A DNA stretch of 61,631 nt, taken from the NCBI GenBank assembly GCA_043804515.1, contig JAZDIZ010000024.1, positions 1-61,631 of the forward strand, in the 5' to 3' direction. The stretch is from Pseudomonadota bacterium (GTDB lineage Bacteria > Bdellovibrionota_G > JALEGL01 > DATDPG01). Both the position numbers and the translations under genes were made by a program. The notes under the pieces were generated by a model. That model was not told the origin of the DNA, did no database searches, and was given only the letters and a program-made list of their open reading frames with translations. How positions within the stretch are numbered: the first letter of the stretch is position 1; each line of letters opens with the position of its first letter. Shown here one piece after another: positions 4,230-50,384 of the stretch.

Positions 4230-4556
4230 TTAAACCTCAGGTCTTTTGGGCGTCGGTGGAAAAGCCTGGATGACTTCAGCCCAGGAGCGTCCCGAAATCT
4301 CGACGGCTTTGTTCCGGCCCGCGTGCCCCCGGACGATCCGAACTGCACTCTTGGGTACGTGAAGCAGTGCGGATAGAAGTTCGACCAGCCCTTCGTTTGC
4401 CTTGTTCTCCACGGCCGGGGACGTCAGGCGCACTCTAACGGTGCCGTCGGCCAGAAGCTGGATCCGGTTTTCGCTCGCCCTCGGTTGAACGCGCACGGAA
4501 AGCTTCGTAACAGCCGGCCTGCTGTTCTGTTGATGACACTGAGATTCTCGATTCAT
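4230..4556 (-). CDS. DUF167 (YggU) family protein
   Basis: LSVRVQPRASENRI...VRLTSPAVENKANEGLVELLSALL...VRIVRGHAGRNKAVEI is typical of DUF167. The start is placed at the internal ATG at 4556 because the longer ORF would run into the divergent rlu gene. Confidence 0.8.
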   Translation of the reverse strand: MNRESQCHQQNSRPAVTKLSVRVQPRASENRIQLLADGTVRVRLTSPAVENKANEGLVELLSALLHVPKSAVRIVRGHAGRNKAVEISGRSWAEVIQAFPPTPKRPEV

Positions 4557-5919: not shown

Positions 5920-5949
5920 CCCGAATTATCTGCGGGCCGCGATGAGTGA

Positions 5950-6073
5950 GGCGGGGTGGTCTGTTGCCTGCGCTCCGTGGCTCGGATCGCATCACGTGGG
6001 ACACCCACTGATGGGTGTCTCCACCCCGGCGATCCTGCGCTTGACCTCCGCTCCGGCACCGGCCCACCCCGTC
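5950..6073 (+). repeat. structured extragenic element, copy A (long imperfect hairpin)
   Basis: Shares TGCCTGCGCTCCGTGGCTCGGATCGCATCAC..GGGACACCC-ACTGAT-GGGTGTC..GGCGATCCTGCGC with the copies at 15.7 and 30.9 kb. Begins 31 nt after the yjbQ-like stop. Confidence 0.8.
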
Positions 6074-6216
6074 TGTTATCCTTCCAAGATGCGTGTATTC
6101 TCCGACAGACCCCCCGATCCCTCCGCCGCTTTGTTTTGCCTACGACCTCGCCTCCAATTGGAGAAAGAACGGTAAGTATGCCGTTTGTCTCGAGAACTAT
6201 CCGCCCTGGCAACCTG

Positions 6217-7218
6217 CTACCGAATCTTTAGTACGGCGGTGCCGTTGATCCGGTCGGCCTTCAGGTCCTGGAGGGCCTGATTGGCTTTGGCCAGGGGAAA
6301 AGTAGTCACGTGCGGGCGGATCGGAATCCGGGCGGCCTCGGCAAGAAGCTCCAGGCCGTCAGCCCTCGTGTTGGCCGTGACCGAGCGGACATTCCGTTCG
6401 TAGAAAAGGTGCTTCTCGTAGTTCAGAGTCGGGATGTCCGTGACGTAAATCCCCGCGATCGAGAGTGTTCCGCCGCGCTTTAAAACGCCGAGCGCCGGGG
6501 GAACCAAATCCCCGACGGGGGCGAAGAGAATGGCGCCGTCCACCTTTCCCGGGAAGCCCCGAATGTCCTCCCCGACCCAGGCAGCGCCCATGGCGCTGGC
6601 CAGCTGGCGGTGTTTTTCCCCACGGGTCACGACGTAGACTTGGCTCTTCCGGCTCAGGGCGATTTGGAGAACGATATGTGCGGAAGACCCGAAGCCGAAG
6701 AGAGCCAGCGAGCCCGCCGCCGGGATCCCCGTGAGCTTAAGGGCCCGGTAACCGATGATCCCGGAGCAGAGGAGGGGAACGGCGTCGGAATCGGAAAGCG
6801 GCTGGGGGATCGGATAAGCGAAGTCTTCCGGAACGGCGAGGAACTCGGCGTACCCACCGTCGGCGTGGTAACCGGTGAACCGTTGGTTTTCGCAAAGGTT
6901 CTCCAAACCGCGGAGGCAGAACTCGCACTTTCCGCAGGTATGTCTGAGCCACGCTACGCCGACTCTGTCGCCGATTCCGAACCGCCGACATTGCGGACCG
7001 AGCTTCGACACCCGGCCGATCGCTTGATGGCCCGGGATGAGAGGGAGTTTTTGGGGAGGAAGATCCCCCTCGATAACGTGGAGGTCGGTGCGGCAGACGG
7101 CGCAACACGAGACCCGGACCTGAAGTTCCCCGGGACCCGGCTCCGGGACTGGGCGTTCCTGGAGGATCAGCGGAAAGGTTTCGACGGGAGCCTGGTTGGA
7201 AAAGACCATCGCTTTCAT
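6217..7218 (-). CDS. zinc-dependent alcohol dehydrogenase (MDR superfamily)
   Basis: CAVCRTDLH, GHQAIG and structural-zinc CGKCEFCLRGLENLC motifs, plus a Rossmann segment LALFGFGSSAH. Confidence 0.9.
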   Translation of the reverse strand: MKAMVFSNQAPVETFPLILQERPVPEPGPGELQVRVSCCAVCRTDLHVIEGDLPPQKLPLIPGHQAIGRVSKLGPQCRRFGIGDRVGVAWLRHTCGKCEFCLRGLENLCENQRFTGYHADGGYAEFLAVPEDFAYPIPQPLSDSDAVPLLCSGIIGYRALKLTGIPAAGSLALFGFGSSAHIVLQIALSRKSQVYVVTRGEKHRQLASAMGAAWVGEDIRGFPGKVDGAILFAPVGDLVPPALGVLKRGGTLSIAGIYVTDIPTLNYEKHLFYERNVRSVTANTRADGLELLAEAARIPIRPHVTTFPLAKANQALQDLKADRINGTAVLKIR

Positions 7219-7281
7219 TATGGCGCCGTCATCGTAGGTGCGTTTCTTTCGGAGCGCAATTCGTGAAATGTCCGCCGGGCG

Positions 7282-8766
7282 GTGATAGAAAAGCCCCTCG
7301 ATATGAGGCTGACGCTAAGACTCACGGCCGTCATCGTATTTGGGATCTGTCTGATTCAGATCGGCAATGGGATTCTGAGAGTGCAACGGGAGACCGCAGC
7401 CTTCGAGAAGGATATGCGCAGCGACCACCAAACGGAAGGCGCGGCGCTGGGGCACCTGATCGCCGTGGCATGGCGGGAACAGGGAATGGGCGAGGCTCTC
7501 CGGTTGATTAATGAAGTCAACGACGCCAGGGGTGTGATTCACCTCCGGTGGATGTGGCTGGACGCCCCTGCGGCAACCGCTGAAGGCATAAAGACGCCGC
7601 CCGATGTCCTTGCGGGCCTGGCACCGGACCACCCCGTGTTTTGGAAGGACAAAACGCAGAGTCCGGGCTTCTTCCGCAGCTATTTCCTGGTGGATGTTCC
7701 GGGTGGGCGAAGAGGGGGGATGGAGCTCTCGGAATCGCTTGCGGCGCTGAAGGCTTTCACAAGAGGCACGCAGCTTCGGATCGTCGCGACGACGGTTGTA
7801 ATCACGTTCCTTGCGGCGATCCTTTCCGTGGTTTTCGGGTTCCTGTTGGTAGGACGCCCCATGCGCGCCATGGTGAAGAAGGCGAGGCGGATCGGTTCCG
7901 GCGACTTTTCGGAACCGTTGGTCTCCTACCGCAGTGACGAGGTCGGACAGCTCGCGTACGAGATCAACCTGATGAACGATCGCCTGCGGACCGCCCGTGA
8001 GAACCTTGAAGCCGAGACCGGCGAGCGGTTGAAAGTGTTGGCCCAGCTTCGGCACGCCGACCGCCTGTCTACCGTTGGAAAGCTGGCCGCAGGCATGGCG
8101 CATGAGCTGGGAACGCCGCTGAACGTCATCTCCGGCAGGGCAAAGATGTGCCTGCGGGGGGAATTGGAGGCCGCGGAACTCCGCGACTCGGCTCAAGTGA
8201 TCGTCGAACAAACGGACCGGATGACGATGCTCATCCGCCAGCTCCTGGATTTTTCGCGTCAGCGCAAACTCGAGCGGGTGCACACGGACTTGAACCAAAT
8301 GGTGTCCAGGACGTTGATCGTTCTTGGAACGCTGGCGGCGAGACAGAAAGTGGTATTGGAAGGTAAAGACAGCGGGAAGCCCGTGTATGCCGAAGTGGAT
8401 GCAATTCAGATGCAGCAGGTGGTGACGAACCTCGTCCTGAACGGCATTCAAGCCATGCCGGAAGGCGGCACGTTGTCGGTCGAGGTGATCCCTTCGCACC
8501 CCGCTCGACGCCCTATCCCCGGTTCCTTGGAGATTGAAGCCGCATGTATCCGAGTGCGTGACCAGGGAAAAGGCATCCCCCCCGAAGTGATCGATCACAT
8601 TTTCGAGCCTTTCTTCACGACAAAGGGCACCGGGGAGGGGTCCGGATTGGGGCTCTCCGTTTCCTACGGCCTGGTCGAGGAGCATGGCGGGTGGTTCGAT
8701 GTGCACAGTGAAACGGGGAAGGGGTCTCTCTTTTCAGTCTATCTTCCGGTCCGGAGCCGACCATGA
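7282..8766 (+). CDS. sensor histidine kinase (TM-periplasmic-TM, HAMP, HisKA, HATPase_c)
   Basis: HAMP motif (DEVGQLAYEINLMNDRL), H-box AHELGTPLN, and N/G boxes (LNGIQAM, GLGLSVSYGLV). The start is GTG 7282 or ATG 7303. Confidence 0.9.
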   Translation: MIEKPLDMRLTLRLTAVIVFGICLIQIGNGILRVQRETAAFEKDMRSDHQTEGAALGHLIAVAWREQGMGEALRLINEVNDARGVIHLRWMWLDAPAATAEGIKTPPDVLAGLAPDHPVFWKDKTQSPGFFRSYFLVDVPGGRRGGMELSESLAALKAFTRGTQLRIVATTVVITFLAAILSVVFGFLLVGRPMRAMVKKARRIGSGDFSEPLVSYRSDEVGQLAYEINLMNDRLRTARENLEAETGERLKVLAQLRHADRLSTVGKLAAGMAHELGTPLNVISGRAKMCLRGELEAAELRDSAQVIVEQTDRMTMLIRQLLDFSRQRKLERVHTDLNQMVSRTLIVLGTLAARQKVVLEGKDSGKPVYAEVDAIQMQQVVTNLVLNGIQAMPEGGTLSVEVIPSHPARRPIPGSLEIEAACIRVRDQGKGIPPEVIDHIFEPFFTTKGTGEGSGLGLSVSYGLVEEHGGWFDVHSETGKGSLFSVYLPVRSRP

Positions 8767-10121
8767 GCGCGCGCATCCTTGTGGTCGATGATGACAGGGG
8801 CATGTGTGAACTTCTTCACGCAAGCCTGAAAAAGCGCGGGTACGAAATCCGGGACCACTTGGATGCCGCCGCCGCTTTGAGGGACCTGGAAGCGGAAGAT
8901 TTCGACGTCGTCGTTACCGATCTCAACATGAGAGGGATGAACGGCATCGAACTGTGCCAGAAGATTTCGGAAAACCGGCCTAACACGCCCGTCATCGTGA
9001 TCACGGCGTTCGGAAGCCTGGAAACGGCGGTGGCCGCCATCCGGGCCGGCGCCTACGATTTCGTCCAGAAGCCACTTGAAATCGACGCGCTCGTCCTCGT
9101 CCTGGAACGGGCGATCCAACATCGTACGCTGCGCGAAGAGGTGAGGCGCTTGCGTCAAACCGTCCAACGTTACACGGAACCGGAGATCATGCTTGGGGCC
9201 AGCGAGCCGATGAGCAAGCTCCTGCAGATGATCGAAAAAGTATCTCAAGGCGACCCCACGGTCCTCATCTACGGCGAAACGGGCTCGGGCAAGGAACTCG
9301 TGGCGCGCCGGATCCACCAGTCGGGGATGCGGAGCAGAGAGCCGTTCATTGCCGTCAATTGCGCCGCCATGCCGGCCACGCTTTTGGAGAGCGAGATGTT
9401 CGGCCACGTTCGGGGAGCTTTTACGGACGCCCGAAGCGACCGGAACGGCCTCTTCGTTCAAGCCCATCGCGGCGTATTGTTCCTGGACGAGGTCGGAGAG
9501 CTTCCTATGGAGCTGCAGCCGAAGCTCCTCCGCGCCTTGCAGGAGCGAAAAGTGCGCCCCGTCGGATCGGACCGGGAGGTCCCTTTTGACGTTCAGATCA
9601 TCGCCTCCACGAACCGGGACTTGGAACAGGAAGTCGAGGAGGGCCGATTCAGGAAGGATCTCTTCTTCAGGATCCACGTGGTCTCCATCTTCGTTCCGCC
9701 CCTTAGGATGCGCGGAAACGACATCTTGCTCTTGGCGCAGCATTTTTTGGGGCAATTCGCGGCGAAGTCGAAAAGGCCCGTGGATGGGATATCGACGCCG
9801 GCGGCCGAAAAATTGCTGGCGTACGACTGGCCCGGAAACGTCCGGGAGCTTCAGAACTGTATCGAGCGCGCCGTGGCGCTGACCAGCTTCCAGTCCATCG
9901 TCGTCGGGGATCTGCCGGAGGCCGTGAGTGAGCCGAAACATTCCGCGTCCGCGTTGCGCACGAGTGATCCAGGGGAGATTCTTCCGATCCAGGAGATGGA
10001 GCGCCGCCACATTCTGAACGTGATGGAGCGGTTGGGTGGAAACCGGACCGTGGCTGCCAAGGCTCTCGGCCTGGATCGCAAGACTCTCTATCGCAAGCTC
10101 AAAGCCTTCGGCATCGACTAA
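8763..10121 (+). CDS. sigma54-dependent response regulator (NtrC family: REC-AAA+-Fis HTH)
   Basis: The receiver Asp lies in VVVTDLNMRGMNG. Walker A is GETGSGKE, the GAFTGA-type loop reads GAFTDA, and the C-terminus has VAAKALGLDRKTLYRKL. There is a 4-nt overlap with the kinase gene. Confidence 0.92.
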   Translation: MSARILVVDDDRGMCELLHASLKKRGYEIRDHLDAAAALRDLEAEDFDVVVTDLNMRGMNGIELCQKISENRPNTPVIVITAFGSLETAVAAIRAGAYDFVQKPLEIDALVLVLERAIQHRTLREEVRRLRQTVQRYTEPEIMLGASEPMSKLLQMIEKVSQGDPTVLIYGETGSGKELVARRIHQSGMRSREPFIAVNCAAMPATLLESEMFGHVRGAFTDARSDRNGLFVQAHRGVLFLDEVGELPMELQPKLLRALQERKVRPVGSDREVPFDVQIIASTNRDLEQEVEEGRFRKDLFFRIHVVSIFVPPLRMRGNDILLLAQHFLGQFAAKSKRPVDGISTPAAEKLLAYDWPGNVRELQNCIERAVALTSFQSIVVGDLPEAVSEPKHSASALRTSDPGEILPIQEMERRHILNVMERLGGNRTVAAKALGLDRKTLYRKLKAFGID

Positions 10122-10198: not shown

Positions 10199-10214
10199 TG
10201 GCATCATTCTTGAT
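10199..10214 (+). promoter_or_regulatory. weak sigma54-type promoter candidate, TGGCAT-N5-TTGAT
   Basis: The GG to G spacing is correct (12 nt), but the conserved -12 C is an A. It overlaps the upstream ATG at 10213, which favours the ATG at 10237 as the start. Confidence 0.25.
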
Positions 10215-10920: not shown

Positions 10921-11760
10921 ATGAAAAGATCCCACGCTTTGGGGCTCTTGGCGGCGACAGCCGTTCTCTGGAGCCTGGGAGGACTCCTCATCAAATTGGT
11001 GGTGTGGCCTCCCTTGGCCATCGCCGGATTTCGAAGCGCCATTGCAGCTCTGGTCCTCTGGATTCTATGCCGGCCGGTCCGGTTGACCTTTTCCCGCTAC
11101 CAATGGGGCGGGGCCATCGCTTACGCGGGAACGGTGATGCTGTTCGTTACGGCTACCAAGATGACGACGGCGGCGAATGCGATCCTGCTTCAGTACACGG
11201 CCCCGGTGTACGTGGCCGCTTTCGCCTACCCGTTCTTGAAAGAACGCACCACGAAGCTGGACTGGTTCGCCATCCTTCTCGCCCTTTCGGGGATGCTTCT
11301 TTTCTTTCGGGATCGGATTTCGGTCAGCGGGGCCTGGGGAAACCTTTGGGCGATCATCAGTGCCTTGACGTTCGCGTGGCTGACGTTGTTCCTTAGGAAG
11401 CTGAAAGGACCGGAGACGTTCGGGGCTGTCCTCCTGGGAAATGTCATTACGGTCGTGCTGTGTTCGCCGTTCATGCTTCAAGTCCAAAAACCGGATGCCG
11501 TAAGCCTCTTTTCCATCCTAGGCCTCGGCGTTTTCCAGCTCGGGCTCTCGTACTATCTCTATGCCAAAGCCATCCAGCACGTCAGGGCTTTGGAGGCAAT
11601 GATGGTGCAGTTCATCGAGCCGATCCTGAATCCGATCTGGGTTCTTATCTTTGTGGGGGAGAGGCCCGGGGCGTTCGCGATCGTGGGCGGAATCATGATC
11701 CTGACGGCCGTGGCCATGCGCACGATGCGCGGTTTGTCGAAATCACGCGCCCTTGCTTGA
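10921..11760 (+). CDS. EamA/DMT-family transporter
   Basis: About 10 predicted TM helices and a two-fold EamA repeat pattern. The ATG at 10921 lies just inside the longer TTG-initiated ORF. Confidence 0.8.
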   Translation: MKRSHALGLLAATAVLWSLGGLLIKLVVWPPLAIAGFRSAIAALVLWILCRPVRLTFSRYQWGGAIAYAGTVMLFVTATKMTTAANAILLQYTAPVYVAAFAYPFLKERTTKLDWFAILLALSGMLLFFRDRISVSGAWGNLWAIISALTFAWLTLFLRKLKGPETFGAVLLGNVITVVLCSPFMLQVQKPDAVSLFSILGLGVFQLGLSYYLYAKAIQHVRALEAMMVQFIEPILNPIWVLIFVGERPGAFAIVGGIMILTAVAMRTMRGLSKSRALA

Positions 11761-21630: not shown

Positions 21631-21729
21631 AAATGGGGACACGTACCAATTAGAAGATTGTCAGCAAAATTAAGCGAATAATTCAGTTAGGTTCCGCAGG
21701 CCTGAGAAATTCGTACGTGTCCCCAATTT
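21631..21729. repeat. inward-facing inverted repeat pair (GGGGACACGTAC ... GTACGTGTCCCC, 12-bp perfect core) around an AT-rich loop of about 66 nt; possible bidirectional terminator or MITE-like element
   Basis: Read directly from the sequence. It lies between the convergent helicase and Fn3 genes. The motif is the same as at 32580 and 33597. Confidence 0.75.
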
Positions 21730-26816: not shown

Positions 26817-27485
26817 TCAGCCGGCCCGGGACTCAAGGACCGAAGGATCGTCGTTCCGAGGGGAATTCACGCGCTTGGAGACCTCCGAAGCCACGAGGTT
26901 CGGAGGCGGAAGTTTAGAGACAAACGCTTTCGGGTCCGTTGATTTCTCCAGCCATTCATCGGCTTGATCCGGTTCCAGAATTACGGGCATCCGGTCGTGG
27001 ATCTCCCGGACTGCTCCCTGCGCCTCAGTCGTGAGGATTGTGAACGTCCGGCGCGGAACTTTCAGTTTCGGGTCGGTCCAATCCTCGAAGAGGCCGGCGA
27101 ACGCGAATAGGCCACCCTTCTCAAGGCGGAACCAGTAGGGCCGGCGATCGGTCTTATCTCCGGTCCATTCGAAAAACCCGTCCGCAGGGATCGCGCAACG
27201 CCTGGATCGGAAGGCTGAACGAAAGGCGGGCTTCACGTCGGCCGAATCCAGCCGGGCGTTCATAAAACCGCGGGGTTCCTTGGCCCAGGACGGGATGAGG
27301 CCCCATTCGGCCCGCTCCAGGATCGGTTCGCCTTTTTCGGGGCGCAGGATGAGATGAAAATCCCCCGGCGCCACGTTGAAGCGCGGGCGATACTCGGCGG
27401 CCCAGTCGGGCGCGGCCCGGCGTATGCCGAAGGAACGGGCTATGTCGGCATATTGGCTGTTCGTAAGCGTGAACCGGCCGCACAT
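26817..27485 (-). CDS. SOS-response-associated peptidase (SRAP/YedK, abasic-site processing)
   Basis: N-terminal MCGRF with the catalytic Cys2, and family-typical length and motifs. Confidence 0.9.
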
Positions 27486-27626
27486 AGCTCCGACTCTATA
27501 TCACGATCGCGGCCTGTCGGATCGGGTGTGAATTAGAGGAACAGCTCACCTATTTTCGGCGCGTCCAAGGAACTCCACCACGGGAAATAGGCTAGCTGTC
27601 ACCATATTTTCCGGAAACGTGAAAAC

Positions 27627-27643
27627 TGACACGGCGTGTGTCA
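27627..27643. promoter_or_regulatory. palindrome TGACAC-GGCGT-GTGTCA; candidate enhancer (UAS) for the adjacent sigma54 activator
   Basis: Perfect 6-bp arms. The same TGACAC-N5-GTGTC(A/G) is seen at 31094 and 32731. Confidence 0.55.
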
Positions 27644-27681
27644 GGATCTCGGGTCAGGCGCGCCACAATCGCGCTCACGCA

Positions 27682-27697
27682 TGGTCTGGATTTTGCG
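27682..27697 (+). promoter_or_regulatory. sigma54 -24/-12 promoter candidate, TGGTCT-GGATT-TTGCG
   Basis: The GG-N10-GC spacing is exact. The GG lies 48 nt from the palindrome centre, the same spacing as at 31149. Confidence 0.45.
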
Positions 27698-27710
27698 ACT
27701 CACAGGGTTG

Positions 27711-29531
27711 ATGCTTCGAAAGATCTGTTCCTTTCGCTTCCTGGGTTTCGCGCTTTACGTGGGTTGGGCCATAGGTCTTTCCATGGCGGTTTCAAGAGGG
27801 GCGTTGGAGACCGTCCAAATGCCGTTTGCAGGGATTCTGCCGTACGCCAATCTTTACGTGGGGGCGTTCACCCAGCCCCATTGGTCGGGGGGGGAGAACC
27901 GGCTGAGGCTTCACGATCGCGTCGTGGCACTGGACGGTGAACCCGTTCCGGATTCGCGGGCGTTCTTAGAAAAAGTCGCCTGGGCCGAGGAGGAAGGCCG
28001 GCCGGCGATGAACGCCACGATCGCCCGGGGCCACGAGCGGTTCCAATCGCACTTGGATGTGGGCCGCCTGGACCCCAAGGACATATTTCTGATCTTCGGC
28101 CCGCTCTTCATAACGGGCCTTGCGTTCTTCCTGATCGGCGCGCTGGCGTTCGTGATCCGCCCGCTTCCTCCGGGGGTTCTTTCGTTCTGGATCTACTGTC
28201 TGACGGCGGGGACCTATCTCCTGACGGCGTACGATTTCCACACGACGTACCGGTTCATTCCCATCCTGCTCACGGCGTTCGCCTTCATTCCGGCCAGCGT
28301 GGTTCACCTGGCGTTCACGTTTCCGCGGCCGATCGTGGAACCGAAAGTGAGCCGCGTGACGTTGCTGGCCCCGTATCTGATGTCGGCCCTGCTTCTCGTG
28401 GGGTATCTTCTGTTCTTCGAGCGGGATCCGCGCACGTGGGCGGTATTCGAATCGAGCTTTTTCTTCTATCTCTCGCTGGCGTACTTGGGATGGCTCGGGA
28501 ACATGCTTTACCGGGCTCTTCGGGATCGGGACGTCCGGATCCGCGAGCAATGCCGCGTGATCTTGGTGGCCCTGATCCCGGCGTTCGGGACCATCTTCGT
28601 CCTGGGTTGGATGGTCTTCGTTTTCGGATCCACGGTGCCGCTCACGACGGCGGTACCTTTCGCGATACTCTTTCCCTTGGCCGTTCTGTACGGGATGCTG
28701 AGACGGAATCTCTTCCTCGTGGATCATCTGGAAGCGCGCGTGCGCGAAAGAACGGAGGCCCTCCAAAGAACGCAGAGCGAGTTGGGCGAGGCCAAGAAAA
28801 TGGCGGCGGTGGGTGTCCTGGCCGCCGGAACGGCCCATGAGATCGGAAACGCCATGAACCTGATCTCGTCGAACCTCCCGGTTTTGCGGCGTTACGCGGA
28901 ACGCCTCTTGAGCCTGGCCGAGAACGATGCAGCGCCGGCGGAGATTCCCCGCCTGAAAACCGAAATGGATTTCGATTATGTGCGGTCGGATCTTCCCGAT
29001 CTTCTGGGAAACCTGGAAAAGGGATCGGAGCGGGCCATCCGGATCGTCCAGGATTTGAAGAGCTTCGCGCGCCCGCCGTCGGCGAAGAAAGAGGCCCTGG
29101 ATCTGGGAAGCCTCGTGGAAAGTACGCTGCGGCTCTTAAAGCCCGAGTTGAAAGAGCGGATCGAAGTGGAAAAAGACATCGGAGAGGTTCCCTCGATTGT
29201 CGGCTCCAGGGATCAGCTTCAACAGGTGATCGTGAACCTGCTCCTGAACGCCGTTCAGGCCATCGAGGGAACCGGCACCATCCGCGTCGAGCTTCATAGC
29301 GCGGCGGATCATTTGATCCTATCGGTCCGGGACTCGGGGCGAGGAATTCCGAAGGAGCTTCTTTCTAGGGTTTTTGAACCGTTTTTCACGACCAAACAGA
29401 GCGGAACCGGGATGGGGCTGAGCGTGAGCTACGGAATCGTGAAGGACCACGGCGGAACATTGCGTTTGGAGAGTGAAATGGGTCACGGCACCAACGCCGT
29501 GATGGAATTACCTTTGGAGGCGAAAACATGA
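27711..29531 (+). CDS. sensor histidine kinase with a periplasmic (PDZ-like?) segment, a multi-TM domain, HisKA and HATPase_c
   Basis: H-box is AHEIGNAMN and the N/G boxes are LLLNAVQA and GTGMGLSVSYGIV. There are at least 7 hydrophobic helices. The frame is open from 27636. The start at ATG 27711 was chosen because it lies downstream of the putative promoter, so the start is uncertain. Confidence 0.85.
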   Translation: MLRKICSFRFLGFALYVGWAIGLSMAVSRGALETVQMPFAGILPYANLYVGAFTQPHWSGGENRLRLHDRVVALDGEPVPDSRAFLEKVAWAEEEGRPAMNATIARGHERFQSHLDVGRLDPKDIFLIFGPLFITGLAFFLIGALAFVIRPLPPGVLSFWIYCLTAGTYLLTAYDFHTTYRFIPILLTAFAFIPASVVHLAFTFPRPIVEPKVSRVTLLAPYLMSALLLVGYLLFFERDPRTWAVFESSFFFYLSLAYLGWLGNMLYRALRDRDVRIREQCRVILVALIPAFGTIFVLGWMVFVFGSTVPLTTAVPFAILFPLAVLYGMLRRNLFLVDHLEARVRERTEALQRTQSELGEAKKMAAVGVLAAGTAHEIGNAMNLISSNLPVLRRYAERLLSLAENDAAPAEIPRLKTEMDFDYVRSDLPDLLGNLEKGSERAIRIVQDLKSFARPPSAKKEALDLGSLVESTLRLLKPELKERIEVEKDIGEVPSIVGSRDQLQQVIVNLLLNAVQAIEGTGTIRVELHSAADHLILSVRDSGRGIPKELLSRVFEPFFTTKQSGTGMGLSVSYGIVKDHGGTLRLESEMGHGTNAVMELPLEAKT

Positions 29532-30895
29532 GCCTGCTGCGACCGCTTTTGTATGTCGATGACGACATTGAAAACCTTTCCACGTTGAAAAGGGTCCTGC
29601 GGGGCCAGTATGAGGTGACCACGGCCGTCACGGCCTCCGAAGCCCTCGCCCGGATGGAGAGGGACTTTTTCCCGGTGGCCGTCGCGGACCAGCGGATGCC
29701 CAAAATGACCGGCGTGGAGTTTCTAAAGGAGGTCCGCCGGAAATATCCGGAGTGCGTGGGCCTGCTTTTGACGGCATACGCCGACATGGACGCGCTCGTG
29801 GACGGCGTCAACGCCAACGTCATCTACCGGTATCTCACCAAGCCGTGGAACGAGACGGATCTTCTCTCGGCCCTCCACCAGGCCTATGAGCATTACGATC
29901 TTAGGAGGGAGAACCGGAAACTCCTGGAGGAACTCAAGAAAGCCAACGCCTACTTCCGCCAGGAAATCGACGAGGCGTTCGATTTTTCCGCATTGGCGGG
30001 GGCCGACCAAGGCCTCAAGCAAGTCGCGGCGCTTGTGGCCAAGGTGGCGCCCACGGATTCGGCCGTCTTGATCCGGGGTGAAAGCGGCGTCGGGAAGGAG
30101 CTGGTGGCGAGAGCGATTCATCAGATGAGCTCTAGGAAGGAAAAACCTTTTGTGCGCGTGAATTGCGGCGCCTTGGCTGAGGGCCTGCTGGAAAGCGAGC
30201 TGTTCGGTCACGAGAAGGGCGCGTTTACGGGCGCGGAGGGACGGAGGATCGGGAGGTTCGAGTTCGCCGAGGGAGGGACGATCTTCCTGGACGAAGTGGG
30301 GGATCTCTCGCCGAAGCTGCAGGTGAACCTCCTGCGCGTATTGCAGGAAAAGGAGTTCGAGCGGGTGGGTGGAAACGAAACGATCCGCGTGGATGTCCGC
30401 GTGATCGCGGCCACGCACCGCCATTTGGAGGAGCTTACGAAGGCGGAAAAATTCCGGCAGGATCTCTTTTTCCGGCTGAACGTTTTTCCCGTCACGGTCC
30501 CGCCGCTCCGGGAACGCATCGGGGATTTGGCCGTTCTGGTCCCCAGGCTTCTGGAAAAGGCGGCCAAGCAAACCCGTCTCGCGCCCAAGACGGTCTCCAA
30601 GCCGGGGGTGGACAAGCTCAAAGGATACGACTGGCCCGGGAATATCCGGGAACTGGAGAATGTCGTTCAGCGGGCGCTGATTCTCTCGACCGGCTCGGAG
30701 ATCGGACCCGATGACCTGATTCTGGGCCCGGGCGTGGACGACACGGTTGTTCCGGCCGTTGAAGCCAAGGAGCTGACGCGGGAGCAACTCGTTGAAACGA
30801 TTCAGGCCTGCGGCGGGAACAAGCTGGAGGCTGCGCGCAAACTGGGAATCAAGCGTCCCACGCTTTACTACCACCTGAAGCGCTTCGGGCTTTAG
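29528..30895 (+). CDS. sigma54-dependent response regulator (REC-AAA+-HTH)
   Basis: VAVADQRMPKMTG (receiver), GESGVGKE, GAFTGA, ESELFGHEKGAFTGA, and a C-terminal AARKLGIKRPTLYYHLK. There is a 4-nt overlap with the kinase gene. Confidence 0.93.
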   Translation: MSLLRPLLYVDDDIENLSTLKRVLRGQYEVTTAVTASEALARMERDFFPVAVADQRMPKMTGVEFLKEVRRKYPECVGLLLTAYADMDALVDGVNANVIYRYLTKPWNETDLLSALHQAYEHYDLRRENRKLLEELKKANAYFRQEIDEAFDFSALAGADQGLKQVAALVAKVAPTDSAVLIRGESGVGKELVARAIHQMSSRKEKPFVRVNCGALAEGLLESELFGHEKGAFTGAEGRRIGRFEFAEGGTIFLDEVGDLSPKLQVNLLRVLQEKEFERVGGNETIRVDVRVIAATHRHLEELTKAEKFRQDLFFRLNVFPVTVPPLRERIGDLAVLVPRLLEKAAKQTRLAPKTVSKPGVDKLKGYDWPGNIRELENVVQRALILSTGSEIGPDDLILGPGVDDTVVPAVEAKELTREQLVETIQACGGNKLEAARKLGIKRPTLYYHLKRFGL

Positions 30896-30927
30896 CGCGG
30901 GACGTCCACGAAACGTCATGAGTCGGG

Positions 30928-31051
30928 GGCGGGCTGGCCCGTTGCCTGCGCTCCGTGGCTCGGATCGCATCACGGGGGACACCCACTGATGGGTGTCCCC
31001 ACCCCGGCGATCCTGCGCTGAACCTTCGCTTCGGCACCGGCCCAGTCCGCC
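30928..31051 (+). repeat. structured extragenic element, copy C
   Basis: GGCGGGCTGGCC..TGCCTGCGCTCCGTGGCTCGGATCGCATCAC-GGGGGACACCC-ACTGAT-GGGTGTCCCC..GGCGATCCTGCGC..GGCCCAGTCCGCC. Begins 33 nt after the stop of the activator gene. Confidence 0.85.
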
Positions 31052-31093
31052 GACGATTCGGGGCAGGTTCATGGGAAGACCTGACACAACTCC

Positions 31094-31110
31094 TGACACG
31101 TCAGGTGTCG
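31094..31110. promoter_or_regulatory. palindrome TGACAC-GTCAG-GTGTCG (UAS candidate), with an extra TGACAC half-site at 31082
   Basis: Read directly from the sequence; paralogous to 32731-32747. Confidence 0.55.
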
Positions 31111-31148
31111 GAAAACGAGGTTCTTCTCTAATAGGGAAGAAGATAGGA

Positions 31149-31164
31149 TGGCATGGGTGGTGCA
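31149..31164 (+). promoter_or_regulatory. sigma54 -24/-12 promoter candidate, TGGCAT-GGGTG-GTGCA
   Basis: The GG-N10-GC spacing is exact and the GG lies 48 nt from the palindrome centre. An alternative register gives GG at 31156 with TTGC at 31166. Confidence 0.55.
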
Positions 31165-31176
31165 GTTGCGGGGGGC

Positions 31177-31641
31177 ATGACAACGCACATAAATAATATG
31201 ATAGCCGGATGCCTGGTCGCGCTGGCTCTAATTCCCGATCTCTGCCGAGCGGGCGAGGAGGTGCCCCTTAAGGAGAAATCGGTGGCCATAGCCACGCTCC
31301 TCGGCCTCGATCCGATCCCTGCCGACGCGCTTTTCTATGCGGGAAGACCCGCTCAGGCCATGGCGAATTTGGTAGTGGGTTTAGCTGGGGTCGGGATGAT
31401 CGCGGGTGCCTTAAGCGTTGGACGCACGACGGATTACAACATTACAACAAAACTCAGTGTCGCCGCGGGAGGCGTTGGGGTTTACTTGATTACGCTGATC
31501 TGGGACCTGGCCGGAGGGGTCTCGGCCGTGCGCGCCGACAATGAAAAGGCCGCTCAATCCGCATTGCCTCACCAACACGTGCGTCCGACGCTGGCCATCG
31601 GGCCCAACGGCGGGTTCGGCGGCGTGGAAGTCAGGTTCTGA
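31177..31641 (+). CDS. small secreted/membrane protein, paralog 1 of an unrecognised family
   Basis: Signal peptide ends CRA|GE. Motifs are LDPIPADALFYAGRP and LIWDLAGG, with Gly-rich hydrophobic segments and a terminal GGVEVRF. The start is ATG 31177 or 31198; the track ATG at 31153 lies inside the promoter. Confidence 0.7.
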   Translation: MTTHINNMIAGCLVALALIPDLCRAGEEVPLKEKSVAIATLLGLDPIPADALFYAGRPAQAMANLVVGLAGVGMIAGALSVGRTTDYNITTKLSVAAGGVGVYLITLIWDLAGGVSAVRADNEKAAQSALPHQHVRPTLAIGPNGGFGGVEVRF

Positions 31642-31665
31642 AAAGAGACCTGAAGATGAGGGCCG

Positions 31666-32244
31666 TCAGAATCCAGCTTCCTTAATCGCTTTCCCGAGCA
31701 ACTTGTCGATCTGGAGACGCCGGGCCCAGCGCCTCATGTAGGAGGTGTCCAGCCGTTTGGATTGAACGCGCAGAACACTGGTCACGTCTCTCCACTGGCG
31801 GTCGGAAATCCGGGCCCCCTTTTCGAACCAGATCAACTTACGAAGAACGAGGTCTTCCGGGCTCGAGACGTACAGCGTCTTCTTCGGTCTCTTTTGAACC
31901 ACTACCAGCTGCCGTCGCCTGAGCTGGGCGCGATCGAAAGGCATGTCTCCCAAGACGAAGATGTCCACCTTCTGAACGGATTCTTGTTCGATCACGTTGA
32001 AGGATTGGGCCTTCTGAACGGCGGTTTCAACGGTTCTCTTGTCGATATAGAAACGGTGCTTAAGAGCCGCCACGAAAGACTTGATGTGGATGGTTCTAAG
32101 TGCTGCGGCGATATCGACATCGTTGGTGGCTCTCGGCTCACCGTATATGGAGCTCGCCAGGGAACCGCCCAGAAAGTGGCCCACCCGCAGGTCTTCGAAA
32201 ATACCGGAAATGTGCAGAGCGACCCGTATCGGCTCGGGGATCAT
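31666..32244 (-). CDS. minimal nucleotidyltransferase-fold protein (Pol-beta superfamily, GS...DxD)
   Basis: GGSLASSIYGEPRATNDVDI matches the G[GS]-x9-13-DxD nucleotidyltransferase signature. The protein is 192 aa. Confidence 0.7.
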   Translation of the reverse strand: MIPEPIRVALHISGIFEDLRVGHFLGGSLASSIYGEPRATNDVDIAAALRTIHIKSFVAALKHRFYIDKRTVETAVQKAQSFNVIEQESVQKVDIFVLGDMPFDRAQLRRRQLVVVQKRPKKTLYVSSPEDLVLRKLIWFEKGARISDRQWRDVTSVLRVQSKRLDTSYMRRWARRLQIDKLLGKAIKEAGF

Positions 32245-32245
32245 T

Positions 32246-32518
32246 CTAATAACCTTCTTGCGCAGGATTCCAATTGAACAGGCGAACCATTGTTGCCCGG
32301 TCCAGGCAAAGAGCGATCAGGCGAAGCCGCAATTCTTTACGGCCGATCCCGGGATGGCGCCTCCTGACGCCTGCCGCAGCGAGGGCTCGACTGCTGCGAA
32401 TCAACTCTCCCGCCTTCTCCAGTTTCTTCCATGGGGGCATAGCCCGGTAGGCCCGAATCAGTCTCTTCTCGGACCAAGGATCCGTGTCCGTCAGCGGGTT
32501 CCGCCCAGGGCCTGTCAT
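32246..32518 (-). CDS. small helical partner protein (antitoxin-like candidate) upstream of the nucleotidyltransferase
   Basis: 90-aa ORF whose stop lies 1 nt before the nucleotidyltransferase start. No family was recognised. Confidence 0.55.
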   Translation of the reverse strand: MTGPGRNPLTDTDPWSEKRLIRAYRAMPPWKKLEKAGELIRSSRALAAAGVRRRHPGIGRKELRLRLIALCLDRATMVRLFNWNPAQEGY

Positions 32519-32579
32519 AAGGGTTCATCTTATACCGTAGCCGGAGCGGGGTGAACCATAACGATTAAAGATCTCGAGA

Positions 32580-32596
32580 AATTGGGGACACGTACC
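32580..32596. repeat. left arm of a perfect 17-bp inverted repeat, AATTGGGGACACGTACC
   Basis: Exact reverse complement of 33597-33613. Confidence 0.85.
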
Positions 32597-32730
32597 AGTT
32601 TCCCATTATGGATGTCACAAGGATCGCAAATCTCCACACCAGGCTCTGGTAACGGTTCCCCGGGACCGGCTGCCGGCTGCCGGGATCTGATAGCAGCATT
32701 CGTCCACGGACATGCTCCTGACACCCAACT

Positions 32731-32747
32731 TGACACGTCAGGTGTCA
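32731..32747. promoter_or_regulatory. palindrome TGACAC-GTCAG-GTGTCA (UAS candidate), with extra half-sites at 32719 and 32878/32889
   Basis: Read directly from the sequence. Its flanks are homologous to the 31082-31140 region. Confidence 0.55.
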
Positions 32748-32937
32748 AAAAAGCGGTTTCTTTCGAACAGGAAGCTTTAGACTGTGATGTTCGATAGCGT
32801 GGCGGCATGGGTGCCGATCGACCGTCCTCACAGCGAGGCAGCGAAGGGGCACACCTCTTCGTGGAAGCTGAACATCCTGACACGCTTCTGACAGCGCGCG
32901 AACTTTGGAACGGGCTGAAATTACTGAAAAATGCCCG

Positions 32938-32953
32938 CGGCATGAGAGTTGCA
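32938..32953 (+). promoter_or_regulatory. sigma54 -24/-12 promoter candidate, CGGCAT-GAGAG-TTGCA
   Basis: GG-N10-GC with a consensus TTGCA. It lies 30 nt upstream of the GTG start, with AAGGAG in between. Confidence 0.6.
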
Positions 32954-32982
32954 AAAGCCAACGAACAGAAAAGGAGAACATC

Positions 32983-33462
32983 GTGAAAAGATTAATGGCG
33001 CTCGGCTTGGTGATCGGAATCGTGGCGTCGGCGGTACCGGCGAAGGCGGGCGAACTCGAAAAGAAATCGATGGGCGTTGCTGCAATATTGGCTTTCGATC
33101 CGATTCCCGGGGACGCACTCTTGTATGCGGGAAAGCCGGTTCAAGGCACGATCAACCTGATTTTGGGTGGGCTTTCGGGGGGTTTCTTTTGGGCCGGGTT
33201 TATCGGCAGTCAGATGATCACGGAACAAGAGCGGCGGGACAGCTCGAGCATGGCCGGCGTTGGCAGAGCGTTGATGATGATCGGGGGCGGAACTATTTAT
33301 TTTCCGATGCTTCTCTGGGATGCGATCGGAGGCATCTACGGCGTGGCCCAATACAACAAGGAAGTGGATCGGAGAAGGAGCTTGGGATTCTTGGAAACAA
33401 TTCAGCCGTCGTTCGCCTACACATCGAATGGGACGTACGTCGGGGCAAAGTTCACATTCTAG
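32983..33462 (+). CDS. small secreted/membrane protein, paralog 2 of the same unrecognised family
   Basis: AAGGAG lies 6 nt before the GTG at 32983. Signal peptide ends AKA|GE. Motifs are FDPIPGDALLYAGKP and LLWDAIGG, with a terminal VGAKFTF. Confidence 0.75.
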   Translation: MKRLMALGLVIGIVASAVPAKAGELEKKSMGVAAILAFDPIPGDALLYAGKPVQGTINLILGGLSGGFFWAGFIGSQMITEQERRDSSSMAGVGRALMMIGGGTIYFPMLLWDAIGGIYGVAQYNKEVDRRRSLGFLETIQPSFAYTSNGTYVGAKFTF

Positions 33463-33596
33463 GAGCAAATCGTGCTAGCGAGAATCCAGGGTACGTCATC
33501 AACGTCGGGCGGTTCTACCGTTACGCGCCGATGGGAATTCCGCTCCTGGCTTTCGGTTACAAGTTCTGAGGCGAAGCGAAGCCGGACCTTGAAATT

Positions 33597-33613
33597 GGTA
33601 CGTGTCCCCAATT
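33597..33613. repeat. right arm of the perfect 17-bp inverted repeat, GGTACGTGTCCCCAATT
   Basis: Exact reverse complement of 32580-32596; ends 41 nt upstream of the next start codon. Confidence 0.85.
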
Positions 33614-33653
33614 GCATGGTGTAAAACTTCCGCCAGCCGGGGAGGTTGTCGGA

Positions 33654-34922
33654 ATGGGATCGAAATCAGGCGGGAGCAAACAAAAAAAGAAAGCGACGTA
33701 CGTCGTGCGGCCCACAACGGCGGTGCTGACGCGCGGATACGATCCGAAACTGTCCGTTGGATCCGCCCGCCCCGCCGTCTTCCGTTCCTCCACGTACGTG
33801 TTTTCGACGCCGGAAGCGGCCGAGAGAGCATTTGACCTGGCGTTGGGAAGGGACGTTCCGAAAGAGGGCGAGGAAGCCGAACTCATTTACGGCCGGCTGT
33901 CCCACCCCAATGCCGAAATCCTGGAGGATCAGATTTGTCCCCTGGAGCCGTTGGCGAGGAGCGCCGCATGCTTCAACACCGGAATGGCCGCAATCTCGAC
34001 GGTGTTCTTCACGTTCTGTGCCCCGAAGACCAGGTTCGTATATACGATGCCGCTCTACGGCGGCACGCACCTTTTGATCCACCAGATCCTGCTTCCGTTC
34101 GGTATGGAGGGGGTTCCGGTGGCCGCGGGGGATACGAAGGGCCTTAAGGAGGCGATCCGAAAGACGAAGGATCTCCGCCTGGTGTTCATCGAGACTCCGT
34201 CCAATCCCACGATCCGCATGACGGACATACGGGCCGCCGTGGAAGCGGCGAAAACCCACAAAACTAAGCCGCTGGTGGCCGTGGACAACACGTTCCTGGG
34301 TCCGGCGTTCCAGCATCCCCTGAAACTGGGGGCGGATCTTTCGATTTATTCCGCCACCAAGTATCTGGCGGGGTTCAGCGACATGTTGGGGGGCGTCGTT
34401 CTGGGGCGGGACCGCGATCTGATGGCCCAGCTCCGGGGCGCTCGGGCGGTGTTCGGAAACATCCTTCAGCCCGACGAATGCTGGATATTGGACACGCGTC
34501 TTCCGACCGTGATTCTTAGGATGAACCGCCAAAGCAAGAACGCGCAGCGAATCGCCGAAGCGCTGGTCGACCACGAAAAGATCAAGAAGGTGTACTACCC
34601 GTCGTTGTTCGACGACCCGGAGCAGATCCGCATCCGGGATTCCCAGTGTGATTTTCCGGGCGGCCTTATCTCCCTTGATCTCAAAGGGGGGAAAAAGGCG
34701 GCGTTCAATTTCCTCCGTCGTCTGCGGCTGGCCAAAAACGCCGTCAGCCTCGGAGGAATGGAAACGCTGGCCTGCCACCCGGCCACGACGACGCATTCGG
34801 AGATTTCGCCGGAAGAGCTTGCGCAAGCTGGTGTGACCGACGGGCTGGTGCGGCTTTCGATCGGCCTGGAGGACTGGCGCGACCTTCTCGACGATTTCAC
34901 GTCCTCCCTGGACGCGGCATAG
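33654..34922 (+). CDS. Cys/Met-metabolism PLP-dependent enzyme (cystathionine gamma-synthase/gamma-lyase family)
   Basis: GGGGAGG lies upstream of the ATG at 33654. The PLP-lysine motif is YSATKYLAGFSD, with a C-terminal LVRLSIGLED. Confidence 0.88.
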   Translation: MGSKSGGSKQKKKATYVVRPTTAVLTRGYDPKLSVGSARPAVFRSSTYVFSTPEAAERAFDLALGRDVPKEGEEAELIYGRLSHPNAEILEDQICPLEPLARSAACFNTGMAAISTVFFTFCAPKTRFVYTMPLYGGTHLLIHQILLPFGMEGVPVAAGDTKGLKEAIRKTKDLRLVFIETPSNPTIRMTDIRAAVEAAKTHKTKPLVAVDNTFLGPAFQHPLKLGADLSIYSATKYLAGFSDMLGGVVLGRDRDLMAQLRGARAVFGNILQPDECWILDTRLPTVILRMNRQSKNAQRIAEALVDHEKIKKVYYPSLFDDPEQIRIRDSQCDFPGGLISLDLKGGKKAAFNFLRRLRLAKNAVSLGGMETLACHPATTTHSEISPEELAQAGVTDGLVRLSIGLEDWRDLLDDFTSSLDAA

Positions 34923-49037: not shown

Positions 49038-50384
49038 ATGACGACGCCCACCGCACAGGCCCAAGCGCCTGCAGAATCAAATTTGAATCGACCCCGTCAT
49101 CCCAAAGGACTTTACGTCCTGTTCGCGACCGAGATGTGGGAGCGGTTCGGGTTTTACGGAATGCTCTCTCTGTTCGTGCTTTACCTCCGCAATCCGGTGG
49201 ACGGGTTCGGTTGGTCGGCCGAACAGGCCACCGGCCTCTATTCGAATTACTATGCGTTCATTTATTTGAGTCCGCTCCTGGGGGGATGGCTCGCGGACAA
49301 GAAGCTGGGCCACCGGCGCGCCGTCATGATCGGCGGGCTGTTCTTCATGCTCGGGTATTTGCTTCTCGGCGTTCACTCTCTGCCGATGATTTACCTGGCC
49401 CTCACGCTCCTTGTGATCGGGAACGGCCTGTTCAAACCGAACGTCTCCACGATGGTCGGAAACCTCTATCCCGAGGGGAGCCGCCTCAAAGACCGCGCAT
49501 TTCTCATCTTTTATATGGGCATCAACATCGGCGCCTTTTTCGGGCCGGTGGTCATGGAATTCGTCAAACGTACCTGGGGGAACCGGCCGGCGTTCACGGT
49601 GCTGGCCTTCGGTATGATTTTTGCCGTCGGCATACTGTGGCGGTTCCGGCGTCTGGTGGAAGGGACGCAGCCGGCGGATCCGTCATCCGCCGCGAGTGCC
49701 GTGAATTCGCCCGCTTCGGCGCAAGCGATCGATTCGATATCCGACCGGAAGCGCATCCTGGCGCTGATCGTGATCTTTCTGCTCGTGATCGTCTTTTGGA
49801 TGGTTTACTTCCAAAACGGTTCCACGCTCACGTACTGGGCGGATGAGAACACGGATTGGAATGTGTCGGGAACGATCTCCAACGCGATCAATCCCTTCTT
49901 CGTCGTTTTGTTCACGTTTCCGCTGATTTGGTTCTGGAAAAAATTGGATGCGAGGGGCCGGGAACCCTCCACGCCGACGAAGATGGCGATCGGGATGTTC
50001 CTGACTGCCATCTCGTTCCTGATCCTATGGGCGGCCGCGAAGATGGGCGAGGCCACGGCGACAACGGGAAATCCGTACGCCTTCAAAGTGTCTCCAAACT
50101 GGCTCGTGAGCGCCTATGCCATCGTGACCCTAGGCGAACTCATGCTCTCCCCCATGGGGCTGTCGCTTGTCTCCAAGGTGGCGCCCCAGCGTATGCGGGG
50201 CCTCATGATGGGGGCCTGGTTCGTGGTCCTTGGAATCGGAGGAAAGCTTACGATGATCGGAGTGCTTTGGACGAAGTGGCTCCACTCCGAGTTTTTCCTG
50301 TTGCTCGCGATGATGGCGCTCGGGATGTCCGTATTGCTGTTTGTCCTGGTCCGGCCGCTCAAGAGAGCGATGCCGGGCGTGTGA
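49038..50384 (+). CDS. POT/PTR2-family proton-dependent oligopeptide transporter
   Basis: HPKGLYVLFATEMWERFGFYGM and GGWLADKKLGHRRAV are PTR2 signatures. Confidence 0.9.
   Translation: MTTPTAQAQAPAESNLNRPRHPKGLYVLFATEMWERFGFYGMLSLFVLYLRNPVDGFGWSAEQATGLYSNYYAFIYLSPLLGGWLADKKLGHRRAVMIGGLFFMLGYLLLGVHSLPMIYLALTLLVIGNGLFKPNVSTMVGNLYPEGSRLKDRAFLIFYMGINIGAFFGPVVMEFVKRTWGNRPAFTVLAFGMIFAVGILWRFRRLVEGTQPADPSSAASAVNSPASAQAIDSISDRKRILALIVIFLLVIVFWMVYFQNGSTLTYWADENTDWNVSGTISNAINPFFVVLFTFPLIWFWKKLDARGREPSTPTKMAIGMFLTAISFLILWAAAKMGEATATTGNPYAFKVSPNWLVSAYAIVTLGELMLSPMGLSLVSKVAPQRMRGLMMGAWFVVLGIGGKLTMIGVLWTKWLHSEFFLLLAMMALGMSVLLFVLVRPLKRAMPGV

Follow-up and report, generated by a model that had tools for sequence, protein, structure and literature searches.

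A putative sigma-54-dependent two-component regulon marked by a palindromic enhancer motif in an uncultivated bacterial lineage

Which genes answer to the sigma-54 activator encoded at positions 29528–30895 of a 61.6-kb contig from the uncultivated Bdellovibrionota_G lineage, and by which DNA site would it find them? The contig (JAZDIZ010000024.1; its whole 61,631 nt were analysed and are hereafter called the window) carries a membrane histidine kinase gene directly before the activator gene and, farther downstream, two genes for small exported, probably envelope, proteins, here target 1 and target 2. An earlier note on this DNA had described a palindrome, TGACAC-N5-GTGTC(A/G), in front of the kinase/activator operon and of each target gene, and had proposed a self-contained sigma-54 circuit. 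The arrangement of sites and genes, in the window and in homologous loci, makes it probable (about 80%, in our estimate) that these genes form a sigma-54-dependent two-component regulon in which the activator autoregulates and drives both targets.

A scan of the window for TGACACNNNNNGTGTCR returned matches at 27627, 31094 and 32731 only, as the earlier note had claimed, and the result was the same with one mismatch permitted. TGACAC-N5-GTGTCR is a 17-mer that is expected 0.31 times by chance, against three occurrences observed, and that count was reached in none of 100 dinucleotide-preserving shuffles. The companion claim that half-sites are confined to this locus stands for the extended form CTGACAC, all five window occurrences of which lie within it, but was overstated for the bare hexamer: the window has 18 copies of TGACAC or its complement, close to the expectation from composition, and 10 of the 18 lie outside the locus. 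The kinase-operon enhancer (27626–27644, forward strand, like the other window enhancers and promoters) reads CTGACAC-GGCGT-GTGTCAG and places half-sites at -56 and -45 from the -24 GG. The target-1 enhancer (31080–31110), CCTGACAC-N4-CCTGACAC-GTCAG-GTGTCG, has half-sites at -68, -56 and -45. At both of these sites the palindrome centre lies 48 nt from the GG (27635 to 27683 at the kinase operon and 31102 to 31150 at target 1), so that the coordinates bear out the distance first proposed. Target 2 has two clusters: a far enhancer at 32717–32747, CCTGACAC-N5-TTGACAC-GTCAG-GTGTCA, with half-sites at -220, -208 and -197 from the promoter at 32938, and a near enhancer at 32876–32894 made of the direct half-sites CCTGACAC-GCTT-CTGACAG, at -61 and -50. 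An exact match to the integration host factor (IHF) consensus was sought between enhancer and promoter and none was found; the literature yielded nothing relevant on TGACAC in connection with sigma-54 or on GTGTC in connection with PilR.

Does each palindrome also have a promoter on which to act? When every window position was scored on both strands with a sigma-54 matrix, the elements that follow the palindromes ranked fourth, first and third: TGGTCTGGATTTTGCG at 27682–27697 before the kinase/activator operon (score 11.8), TGGCATGGGTGGTGCA at 31149–31164 before target 1 (score 13.2) and CGGCATGAGAGTTGCA at 32938–32953 before target 2 (score 12.2). The GG-N10-GC element reported earlier after each palindrome is thus confirmed, and in each case GG and GC stand ten bases apart in surroundings of the TGGCAC-N5-TTGCW type, ahead of a gene that reads in the same direction. 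The second-ranked match, at 49610, was rejected as a chance hit inside a transporter-like coding sequence. Because the 230 nt that follow any one site should contain only about 0.0075 matches as strong as these, the finding of promoters at three sites out of three is far beyond chance.

The kinase gene (27711–29531, forward strand) lies in an open reading frame (ORF) that extends from 27636 to 29531; because the promoter sits inside this longest ORF, the likely start is the downstream ATG at 27711, 13 nt after the -11 position, and this start matches the equivalent Met at the N-termini of the orthologs. The predicted protein has one N-terminal membrane helix, a periplasmic stretch of about 95 amino acids, about six further membrane helices and a DHp/HATPase_c core. 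Matches to PDZ_2 and PDZ_6 are sub-threshold (E 0.01–0.06) and fall at the same place in the kinases of the window and of one comparison locus, L012; this PDZ-like segment is missing from the L005 ortholog. A single-sequence AlphaFold model of the sensor was unusable, with a predicted local distance difference test (pLDDT) score of 51. The activator gene (29528–30895, forward strand) encodes a response regulator with a complete NtrC-type architecture: a REC domain (Response_reg, 4.9e-17), an AAA+ domain with the GAFTGA motif (Sigma54_activat, 2.3e-71, plus AAA_lid_14) and a Fis-type HTH_8 domain (7.5e-10) with the recognition helix KLGIKRPTLYYHLKRFG. The GAFTGA loop, Walker A and the phospho-acceptor Asp can be read in the translation, which has GHEKGAFTGA, GESGVGKE, VDDD and ADQRMP. 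None of the NCBIfam equivalogs was reached (NtrC, 373 bits against a cut-off of 559), and the closest solved structure is that of ZraR, 1OJL.

To test the regulatory reading, we compared the locus with homologous loci from several different metagenome genomes and contigs. In six of them (L001, L005, L006, L008, L011 and L019) a TGACA[CG]-N5-[CG]TGTCA site is followed by a sigma-54 promoter before a homolog of target 2 (34–46% identity). The distance from palindrome start to promoter is 54–56 nt in these loci and 55 nt in the window, the palindrome centre lies 47–49 nt from the promoter, and the palindrome is unique within each comparison locus that was scanned whole. The promoters of the homologous loci reach matrix scores of 13–17. 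Measured from the GG, the half-sites keep a common register, with forward copies at -68/-69 and -56/-57, a reverse copy at -45/-46 and often a further forward copy at -27. L007 has four promoters, with an equal set of half-sites displaced by 21 bp, or two helical turns. In L012 a strong promoter is accompanied by half-sites in four direct copies.

In three sequenced loci, orthologs of the regulatory genes adjoin the targets. In L005, three tandem paralogs of the target are followed by a kinase (50%) and an activator (68%) in one operon; in L008, the genes for kinase (51%) and activator (69%) point away from the target gene, with the palindrome within the common intergenic region; and in L012, the kinase and activator orthologs are again divergent from the target, with a sigma-54 promoter (score 13.6) also on the kinase side. 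On the P0007 contig, three paralogs lie upstream of a kinase. The recognition helix KLGIKRPTLYYHLKRFG is nearly identical across the orthologous activators. Autoregulation has parallels outside the window in the kinase-side promoter of L012 and in L005, where kinase and activator lie inside the target operon. Taken together, conserved layout, gene linkage and the recognition helix lead us to assign the motif to the activator at 29528–30895 and support its autoregulation, so that the proposal that this protein controls its own operon and both envelope-protein genes is strengthened by the conserved register and by the linked orthologs of L005, L008 and L012. What the sequences show are the motifs with their statistics, the domains of the proteins and the conserved layout and linkage; activator binding, sigma-54 dependence, where transcription begins, what the kinase senses and what the targets do are inferred.

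How securely does the evidence single out this activator? Several results weigh against the regulon as drawn. The sigma-54 matrix is approximate, with frequencies after the compilation of Barrios et al. 1999, and the kinase promoter, with TGGTCT at -24, is the weakest match of the three. Among the comparison loci, L004 has a perfect promoter but half-sites in the opposite arrangement, and in L002 and L010, which are AT-rich homolog loci, neither motif nor promoter was found. On the kinase side of L008 no sigma-54 promoter was found, so autoregulation is not universal; a matrix match there at 9850 (minus strand) was rejected as a promoter since it overlaps the kinase start codon. A search for the RpoN box in all frames of the window found no rpoN. 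In addition, the window encodes a second two-component system at 7282–10121, with a HAMP histidine kinase and a sigma-54 activator of its own (8763–10121), and the genome surely has more. ‘Self-contained’ is thus too loose a word for this circuit; because further sigma-54 activators exist, the assignment of the motif rests on linkage and conservation.

These same observations bear on the alternative that the palindrome is regulatory but is bound by some other protein, whether another sigma-54 activator, such as the one at 8763–10121, or a repressor. That second protein has the same REC-AAA+-HTH_8 architecture, and L006, L011, L001 and L019 have the motif with no kinase/activator pair within the sequence covered. 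However, the site precedes the operon of the assigned activator itself, three independent genomes have an orthologous pair linked to targets that bear the motif, and these orthologs share a recognition helix that differs in the second activators of both the window and L012 (14–40% identity). We consider binding by another regulator improbable. It is less credible still, and in our view barely worth entertaining, that the motifs are chance or repeat-element debris and that ordinary promoters read the genes: although the bare hexamer is not enriched window-wide and palindromic repeats of the GGGGACAC type do occur in the window, such an account must accommodate the joint improbability of motifs and promoters, their conservation, register included, before homologs of 30–46% identity in several genomes and contigs, and the failure of a search of 27300–33800 to find any sigma-70-like promoter. 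Nor did the region match any Rfam family.

We thus return to regulation by the linked activator, for which the following model can be drawn. The membrane kinase (27711–29531) would respond to a signal, probably from the envelope or membrane, and phosphorylate the activator (29528–30895). Activator dimers would then occupy TGACAC-type half-sites one helical turn apart (about -68, -56 and -45) and assemble into an AAA+ ring, whose ATP hydrolysis would open sigma-54 holoenzyme complexes at the activator's own operon (positive autoregulation), at target 1 and at target 2. The mRNAs of the kinase operon and of target 1 are predicted to have leaders of 0–3 nt and would be translated without a Shine-Dalgarno sequence; target 2, with its differently built promoter and two enhancer clusters, would have a normal leader. 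More speculatively, the products of the circuit may feed back on the kinase. They may be sensed by its membrane block, for which the recognition of PilA by PilS is an attractive model, or by the PDZ-like periplasmic segment, which may read the conserved C-terminal Phe of the target proteins.

The prediction of near-absent leaders comes from the distance between promoter and gene, which we measured, at 13 promoters, as the gap in nucleotides that separates the -11 position from the start codon. This spacing is 12 nt at target 1 of the window and at L001, L004, L006, L008 and L012, and also at L017 and L019 if an in-frame third codon is used; it is 13 nt at the window kinase and at two L007 promoters, 15 nt at L011, 24 nt at L005 and 29 nt at target 2 of the window. 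Of the 13 promoters, 11 fall within 12–15 nt. There is no downstream alternative start, because the proteins open with Lys-rich signal-peptide N-termini. Numbered with the C of the GC at -12, the ATG would begin at about +3 or +4; the spacing therefore predicts an mRNA leader of 0–3 nt, with no room for a Shine-Dalgarno site. Such sites are present at other genes of the window, including the activator gene and target 2. The spacing of 12–15 nt is a new observation of this analysis (the earlier note lacks it; at the kinase operon and target 1 the ORFs begin 12–13 nt after the -12 element).

Do these promoters form a class of their own? It is conceivable, though we would put it somewhat short of even odds, that they define a conserved sigma-54-dependent class in which open-complex formation, gated by the activator, yields nearly leaderless mRNAs that are translated without a Shine-Dalgarno site. 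Several other sigma-54-like promoters of the L005 genome sit 12–15 nt from a start codon, and the spacing may be a lineage-wide rather than a regulon trait. In L005 itself, other sigma-54-like promoters at 4337, 5185, 5940 and 20421 (minus strand) drive secreted proteins, with the start 14–15 nt after -11 in three of the four; three of these promoters have in common a ACGTATTGAT-like motif on their upstream side, where another activator may bind. In a non-exhaustive comparison with the literature on leaderless mRNAs and sigma-54, one survey of transcription starts tied leaderless mRNAs to RpoD-like or extended -10 motifs (PMC4842269) and another reported leaderless mRNAs without a connection to sigma-54 (PMC3616915). 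Should the near-absence of a leader be true, sigma-54 promoters can couple directly to leaderless translation.

Why, then, does target 2 depart from this plan? Its promoter at 32938 lies 207 nt from the palindrome, and a direct pair, TGACAC-N5-TGACAG, occupies 32878–32894. The earlier description of this gene, in which the position homologous to the target-1 promoter lacks a -12 element and a consensus-like promoter stands about 200 nt from the palindrome instead, agrees with the coordinates: at 32803–32818 (forward strand) we find CGGCATGGGTGCCGAT, a possible decayed promoter with a -24-like CGGCATGGGTG, no -12 GC and a matrix score of 0.0. This relic shares the 10-mer GGCATGGGTG with the target-1 promoter in a collinear position, a match that arose in 78 of 5000 shuffles, and it lies 72 nt from its palindrome as against 55 nt for the target-1 promoter, a shift in register of 17 nt. 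Over a 46-nt context, the far enhancer and the target-1 enhancer share 76% identity, and the shared stretch includes the spacer GTCAG and the following A/T-rich segment, neither of which is conserved between genomes; we read this as evidence for common ancestry of the two enhancers or for conversion between them within this genome. Finally, a 23-bp inverted repeat (left arm 32580–32602, right arm 33591–33613, 96% complementary) encloses the entire target-2 unit. Its core TTGGGGACACGTACCA, a 16-mer, recurs between two convergent genes as a compact inverted pair at 21633–21648 and 21711–21726, which spans about 95 bp. The repeat looks like a repetitive extragenic palindromic (REP) or miniature inverted-repeat transposable element (MITE), and its placement gives a hint that target 2 may have the past of a cassette.

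The earlier note held that the second promoter was rebuilt after duplication, and we regard this history as plausible but offer it only tentatively, at clearly less than even odds. It would have the ancestral promoter decay at 32803 after the duplication, to be replaced by the promoter at 32938 together with the direct-repeat enhancer and a leader with a Shine-Dalgarno site, the far palindrome staying behind as a remnant or an auxiliary site. It draws on the layout, since target 2 is the sole one of the 13 promoters with a 29-nt leader and with half-sites at -61/-50 besides those at -220 to -197, on the enhancer identity with its unconserved spacer, and on the rarity of the collinear 10-mer in shuffles. 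What keeps it from being demonstrated is the relic's register, the fact that MAFFT pairs the relic with the start-codon region of target 1 instead, and the ease with which the facts can be read otherwise: a distance of 200 nt is ordinary between a sigma-54 promoter and its enhancer, so that nothing need be dead and the far site is equally possibly a working remote enhancer, and with proteins that are only 33% identical, the likeness of the enhancers may reflect gene conversion or selection and not recent duplication. The inverted repeat raises a further possibility, that the unit (32580–33613) was not rebuilt in place but came in, or was rearranged, as a cassette with a repeated element at its ends. 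This fits the way in which the repeat encloses exactly the enhancers, promoter and gene of target 2, the second inverted pair of its core at 21633/21711, and the two unrelated minus-strand genes that part targets 1 and 2 here while the paralogs stand in tandem in L005 and two further contigs. We hold it to be unlikely all the same: we saw neither a transposase nor a target-site duplication nor an empty site, and a REP-like element may flank the gene by happenstance.

What do the targets encode? Target 1 (31177–31641, forward strand) is a small secreted or membrane protein whose start we take to be the ATG at 31177, 12 nt after -11 as in the homologs; an alternative ATG is at 31198. Target 2 (32983–33462, forward strand) opens with GTG behind an AAGGAG Shine-Dalgarno sequence, with a 29-nt gap after -11. 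The two are paralogs (33% identity, E 4e-20) with no match in Pfam or NCBIfam. A single-sequence search of 5.8 billion proteins found three relatives and a profile search found 34, while HMMER, run in full against 1.84 billion cluster representatives, returned 128 at E ≤ 1e-3, 85 of them at E ≤ 1e-10; the members are all metagenomic and nearly all without a name. Their alignment shows a Sec-type signal peptide, a near-invariant DPIPGDAL(F/L)YAG, a WD..GG motif and, in nearly all members, a C-terminal Phe. AlphaFold2, run with the family alignment, gave a model of mean pLDDT 92.2 with two long, glycine-rich helices (52–77 and 90–139) and a C-terminal beta-hairpin (140–157). Foldseek found no match for this model in the PDB (best E 1.3), nor did the family profile among PDB sequences. 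We would place the family in the envelope, possibly in association with the outer membrane. In L012, the first gene after the promoter encodes a 256-residue protein without a Pfam match that by eye looks like an outer-membrane beta-barrel ending in Phe; the family member comes next. In L007, a sigma-54 promoter with an enhancer as in the target family (11012–11160) drives a 42-residue ORF that consists only of a signal peptide and the C-terminal motif of the family (…NGAMVGAQIKF), a minimal or truncated member. Also in L007, at 5944–7445, a palindrome and a sigma-54 promoter are followed, 12 nt after -11, by an ATG that opens a stub of 12 codons, and an ISL3 transposase comes next, as if an insertion sequence had destroyed a target gene.

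The value of the locus lies in what can now be connected. For an uncultivated lineage, it assembles a concrete, if putative, regulon from sensor and activator through the enhancer motif with its register to three promoters and two effectors, and it attaches a regulatory context to a rare, unannotated protein family with a confidently predicted fold and no solved relative.

Other features of the window and of the comparison contigs are recorded here. A composite scan of metagenome contigs for the palindrome, a gap of 36–41 nt and the -24/-12 element gave 10 matches, about the number expected by chance, nine of them inside coding sequence. The only one that looks real (L022, oriented forward, 252–420) has an ATG 12 nt after -11 and a 28-residue hydrophobic ORF unrelated to the family. 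EAL-domain genes lie directly upstream of the enhancer in L001 (1–798) and L019 (192–788), and a PilZ gene lies near a family member in L015; these neighbours hint at a connection to cyclic di-GMP. Behind the activator stop codon of the window, a stem-loop at 30962–31013 (forward strand, -40.3 kcal/mol, z -4.35, without a U-tract) probably serves as a transcript end or as an insulator dividing the operon from target 1. It holds a GGGGACAC/GTGTCCCC pair. GGGGACAC and its complement form four inverted pairs in the window (15740/15756, 21635/21717, 30975/30993 and 32584/33602), the third of which forms the strong hairpin after the activator gene. Just downstream of the second two-component system, at 10199, a weak promoter-like TGGCATCATTCTTGAT (-24/-12-like) stands 22 nt before a response-regulator-like ORF.

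The two minus-strand genes between targets 1 and 2, at 31666–32244 (192 residues) and 32246–32518 (90 residues), have products without a match in Pfam or NCBIfam and are possibly an inserted two-gene module. The N-terminus of the 192-residue protein appears nucleotidyltransferase-like by eye; a relationship to the DUF6036-like protein of L012 was considered for it and rejected, there being no real similarity. Divergent from the kinase operon is a gene for an SOS-response-associated peptidase (SRAP; 26817–27485, minus strand), and the palindrome at 27627 lies 142 nt upstream of its start. A LexA-type operator for this gene was rejected as a reading of the motif, which elsewhere accompanies sigma-54 promoters in unrelated neighbourhoods.

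How does this circuit compare with known systems? In the GlrK/GlrR (QseE/F) system, the enhancer is TGTC-N10-GACA (table in PMC4987338). GlrR, like the window activator, is an NtrC-family response regulator with a short inverted repeat of TGTC/GACA core. In contrast, the window site has another orientation and spacing, GACA-N7-TGTC inside TGACAC-N5-GTGTCA, the GlrR targets are small RNAs, and the window activator scores 307 bits against a GlrR cut-off of 763.

PilSR/PilA is a second point of comparison. PilS has a six-helix membrane domain and senses its own product, PilA, inside the membrane, and PilR sites contain short GTCT-type elements (PMC6058289). The window circuit resembles this system in the six-helix membrane block of its kinase, in its sigma-54 activator and in having as main target a small, hydrophobic exported protein, as the highly expressed PilA is. 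However, the targets have Sec-type signal peptides and not prepilin leaders, which places them outside the PilA family; the kinase adds an N-terminal helix and a periplasmic segment to the PilS plan; the binding motif is of a different sequence; and no pilus genes are nearby, the neighbours being SRAP, a pyridoxal phosphate (PLP) enzyme and two small unassigned proteins.

The circuit would work like ZraSR/ZraP of E. coli and Salmonella, in which a sigma-54 activator and its kinase control their own operon and a small exported envelope protein. There, zraP and zraSR have divergent sigma-54 promoters and the target is a small periplasmic protein (PMC4987338). The divergent arrangement of target and kinase/activator genes in L008 and L012 is alike, and ZraR is both the best NCBIfam model for the window activator and its best solved relative; at 374 bits against a cut-off of 760 for NF007689, however, the activator lies outside that equivalog. 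The two systems also differ in that the window targets resemble neither ZraP nor any entry of Pfam or the PDB, that the kinase, with about seven membrane helices, has a sensor different from that of ZraS, and that the window units are co-directional, with a spacing that predicts almost no mRNA leader. The logic of the circuit, autoregulated two-component control of small envelope proteins, is conventional, and it is the one that ZraSR/ZraP exemplifies.

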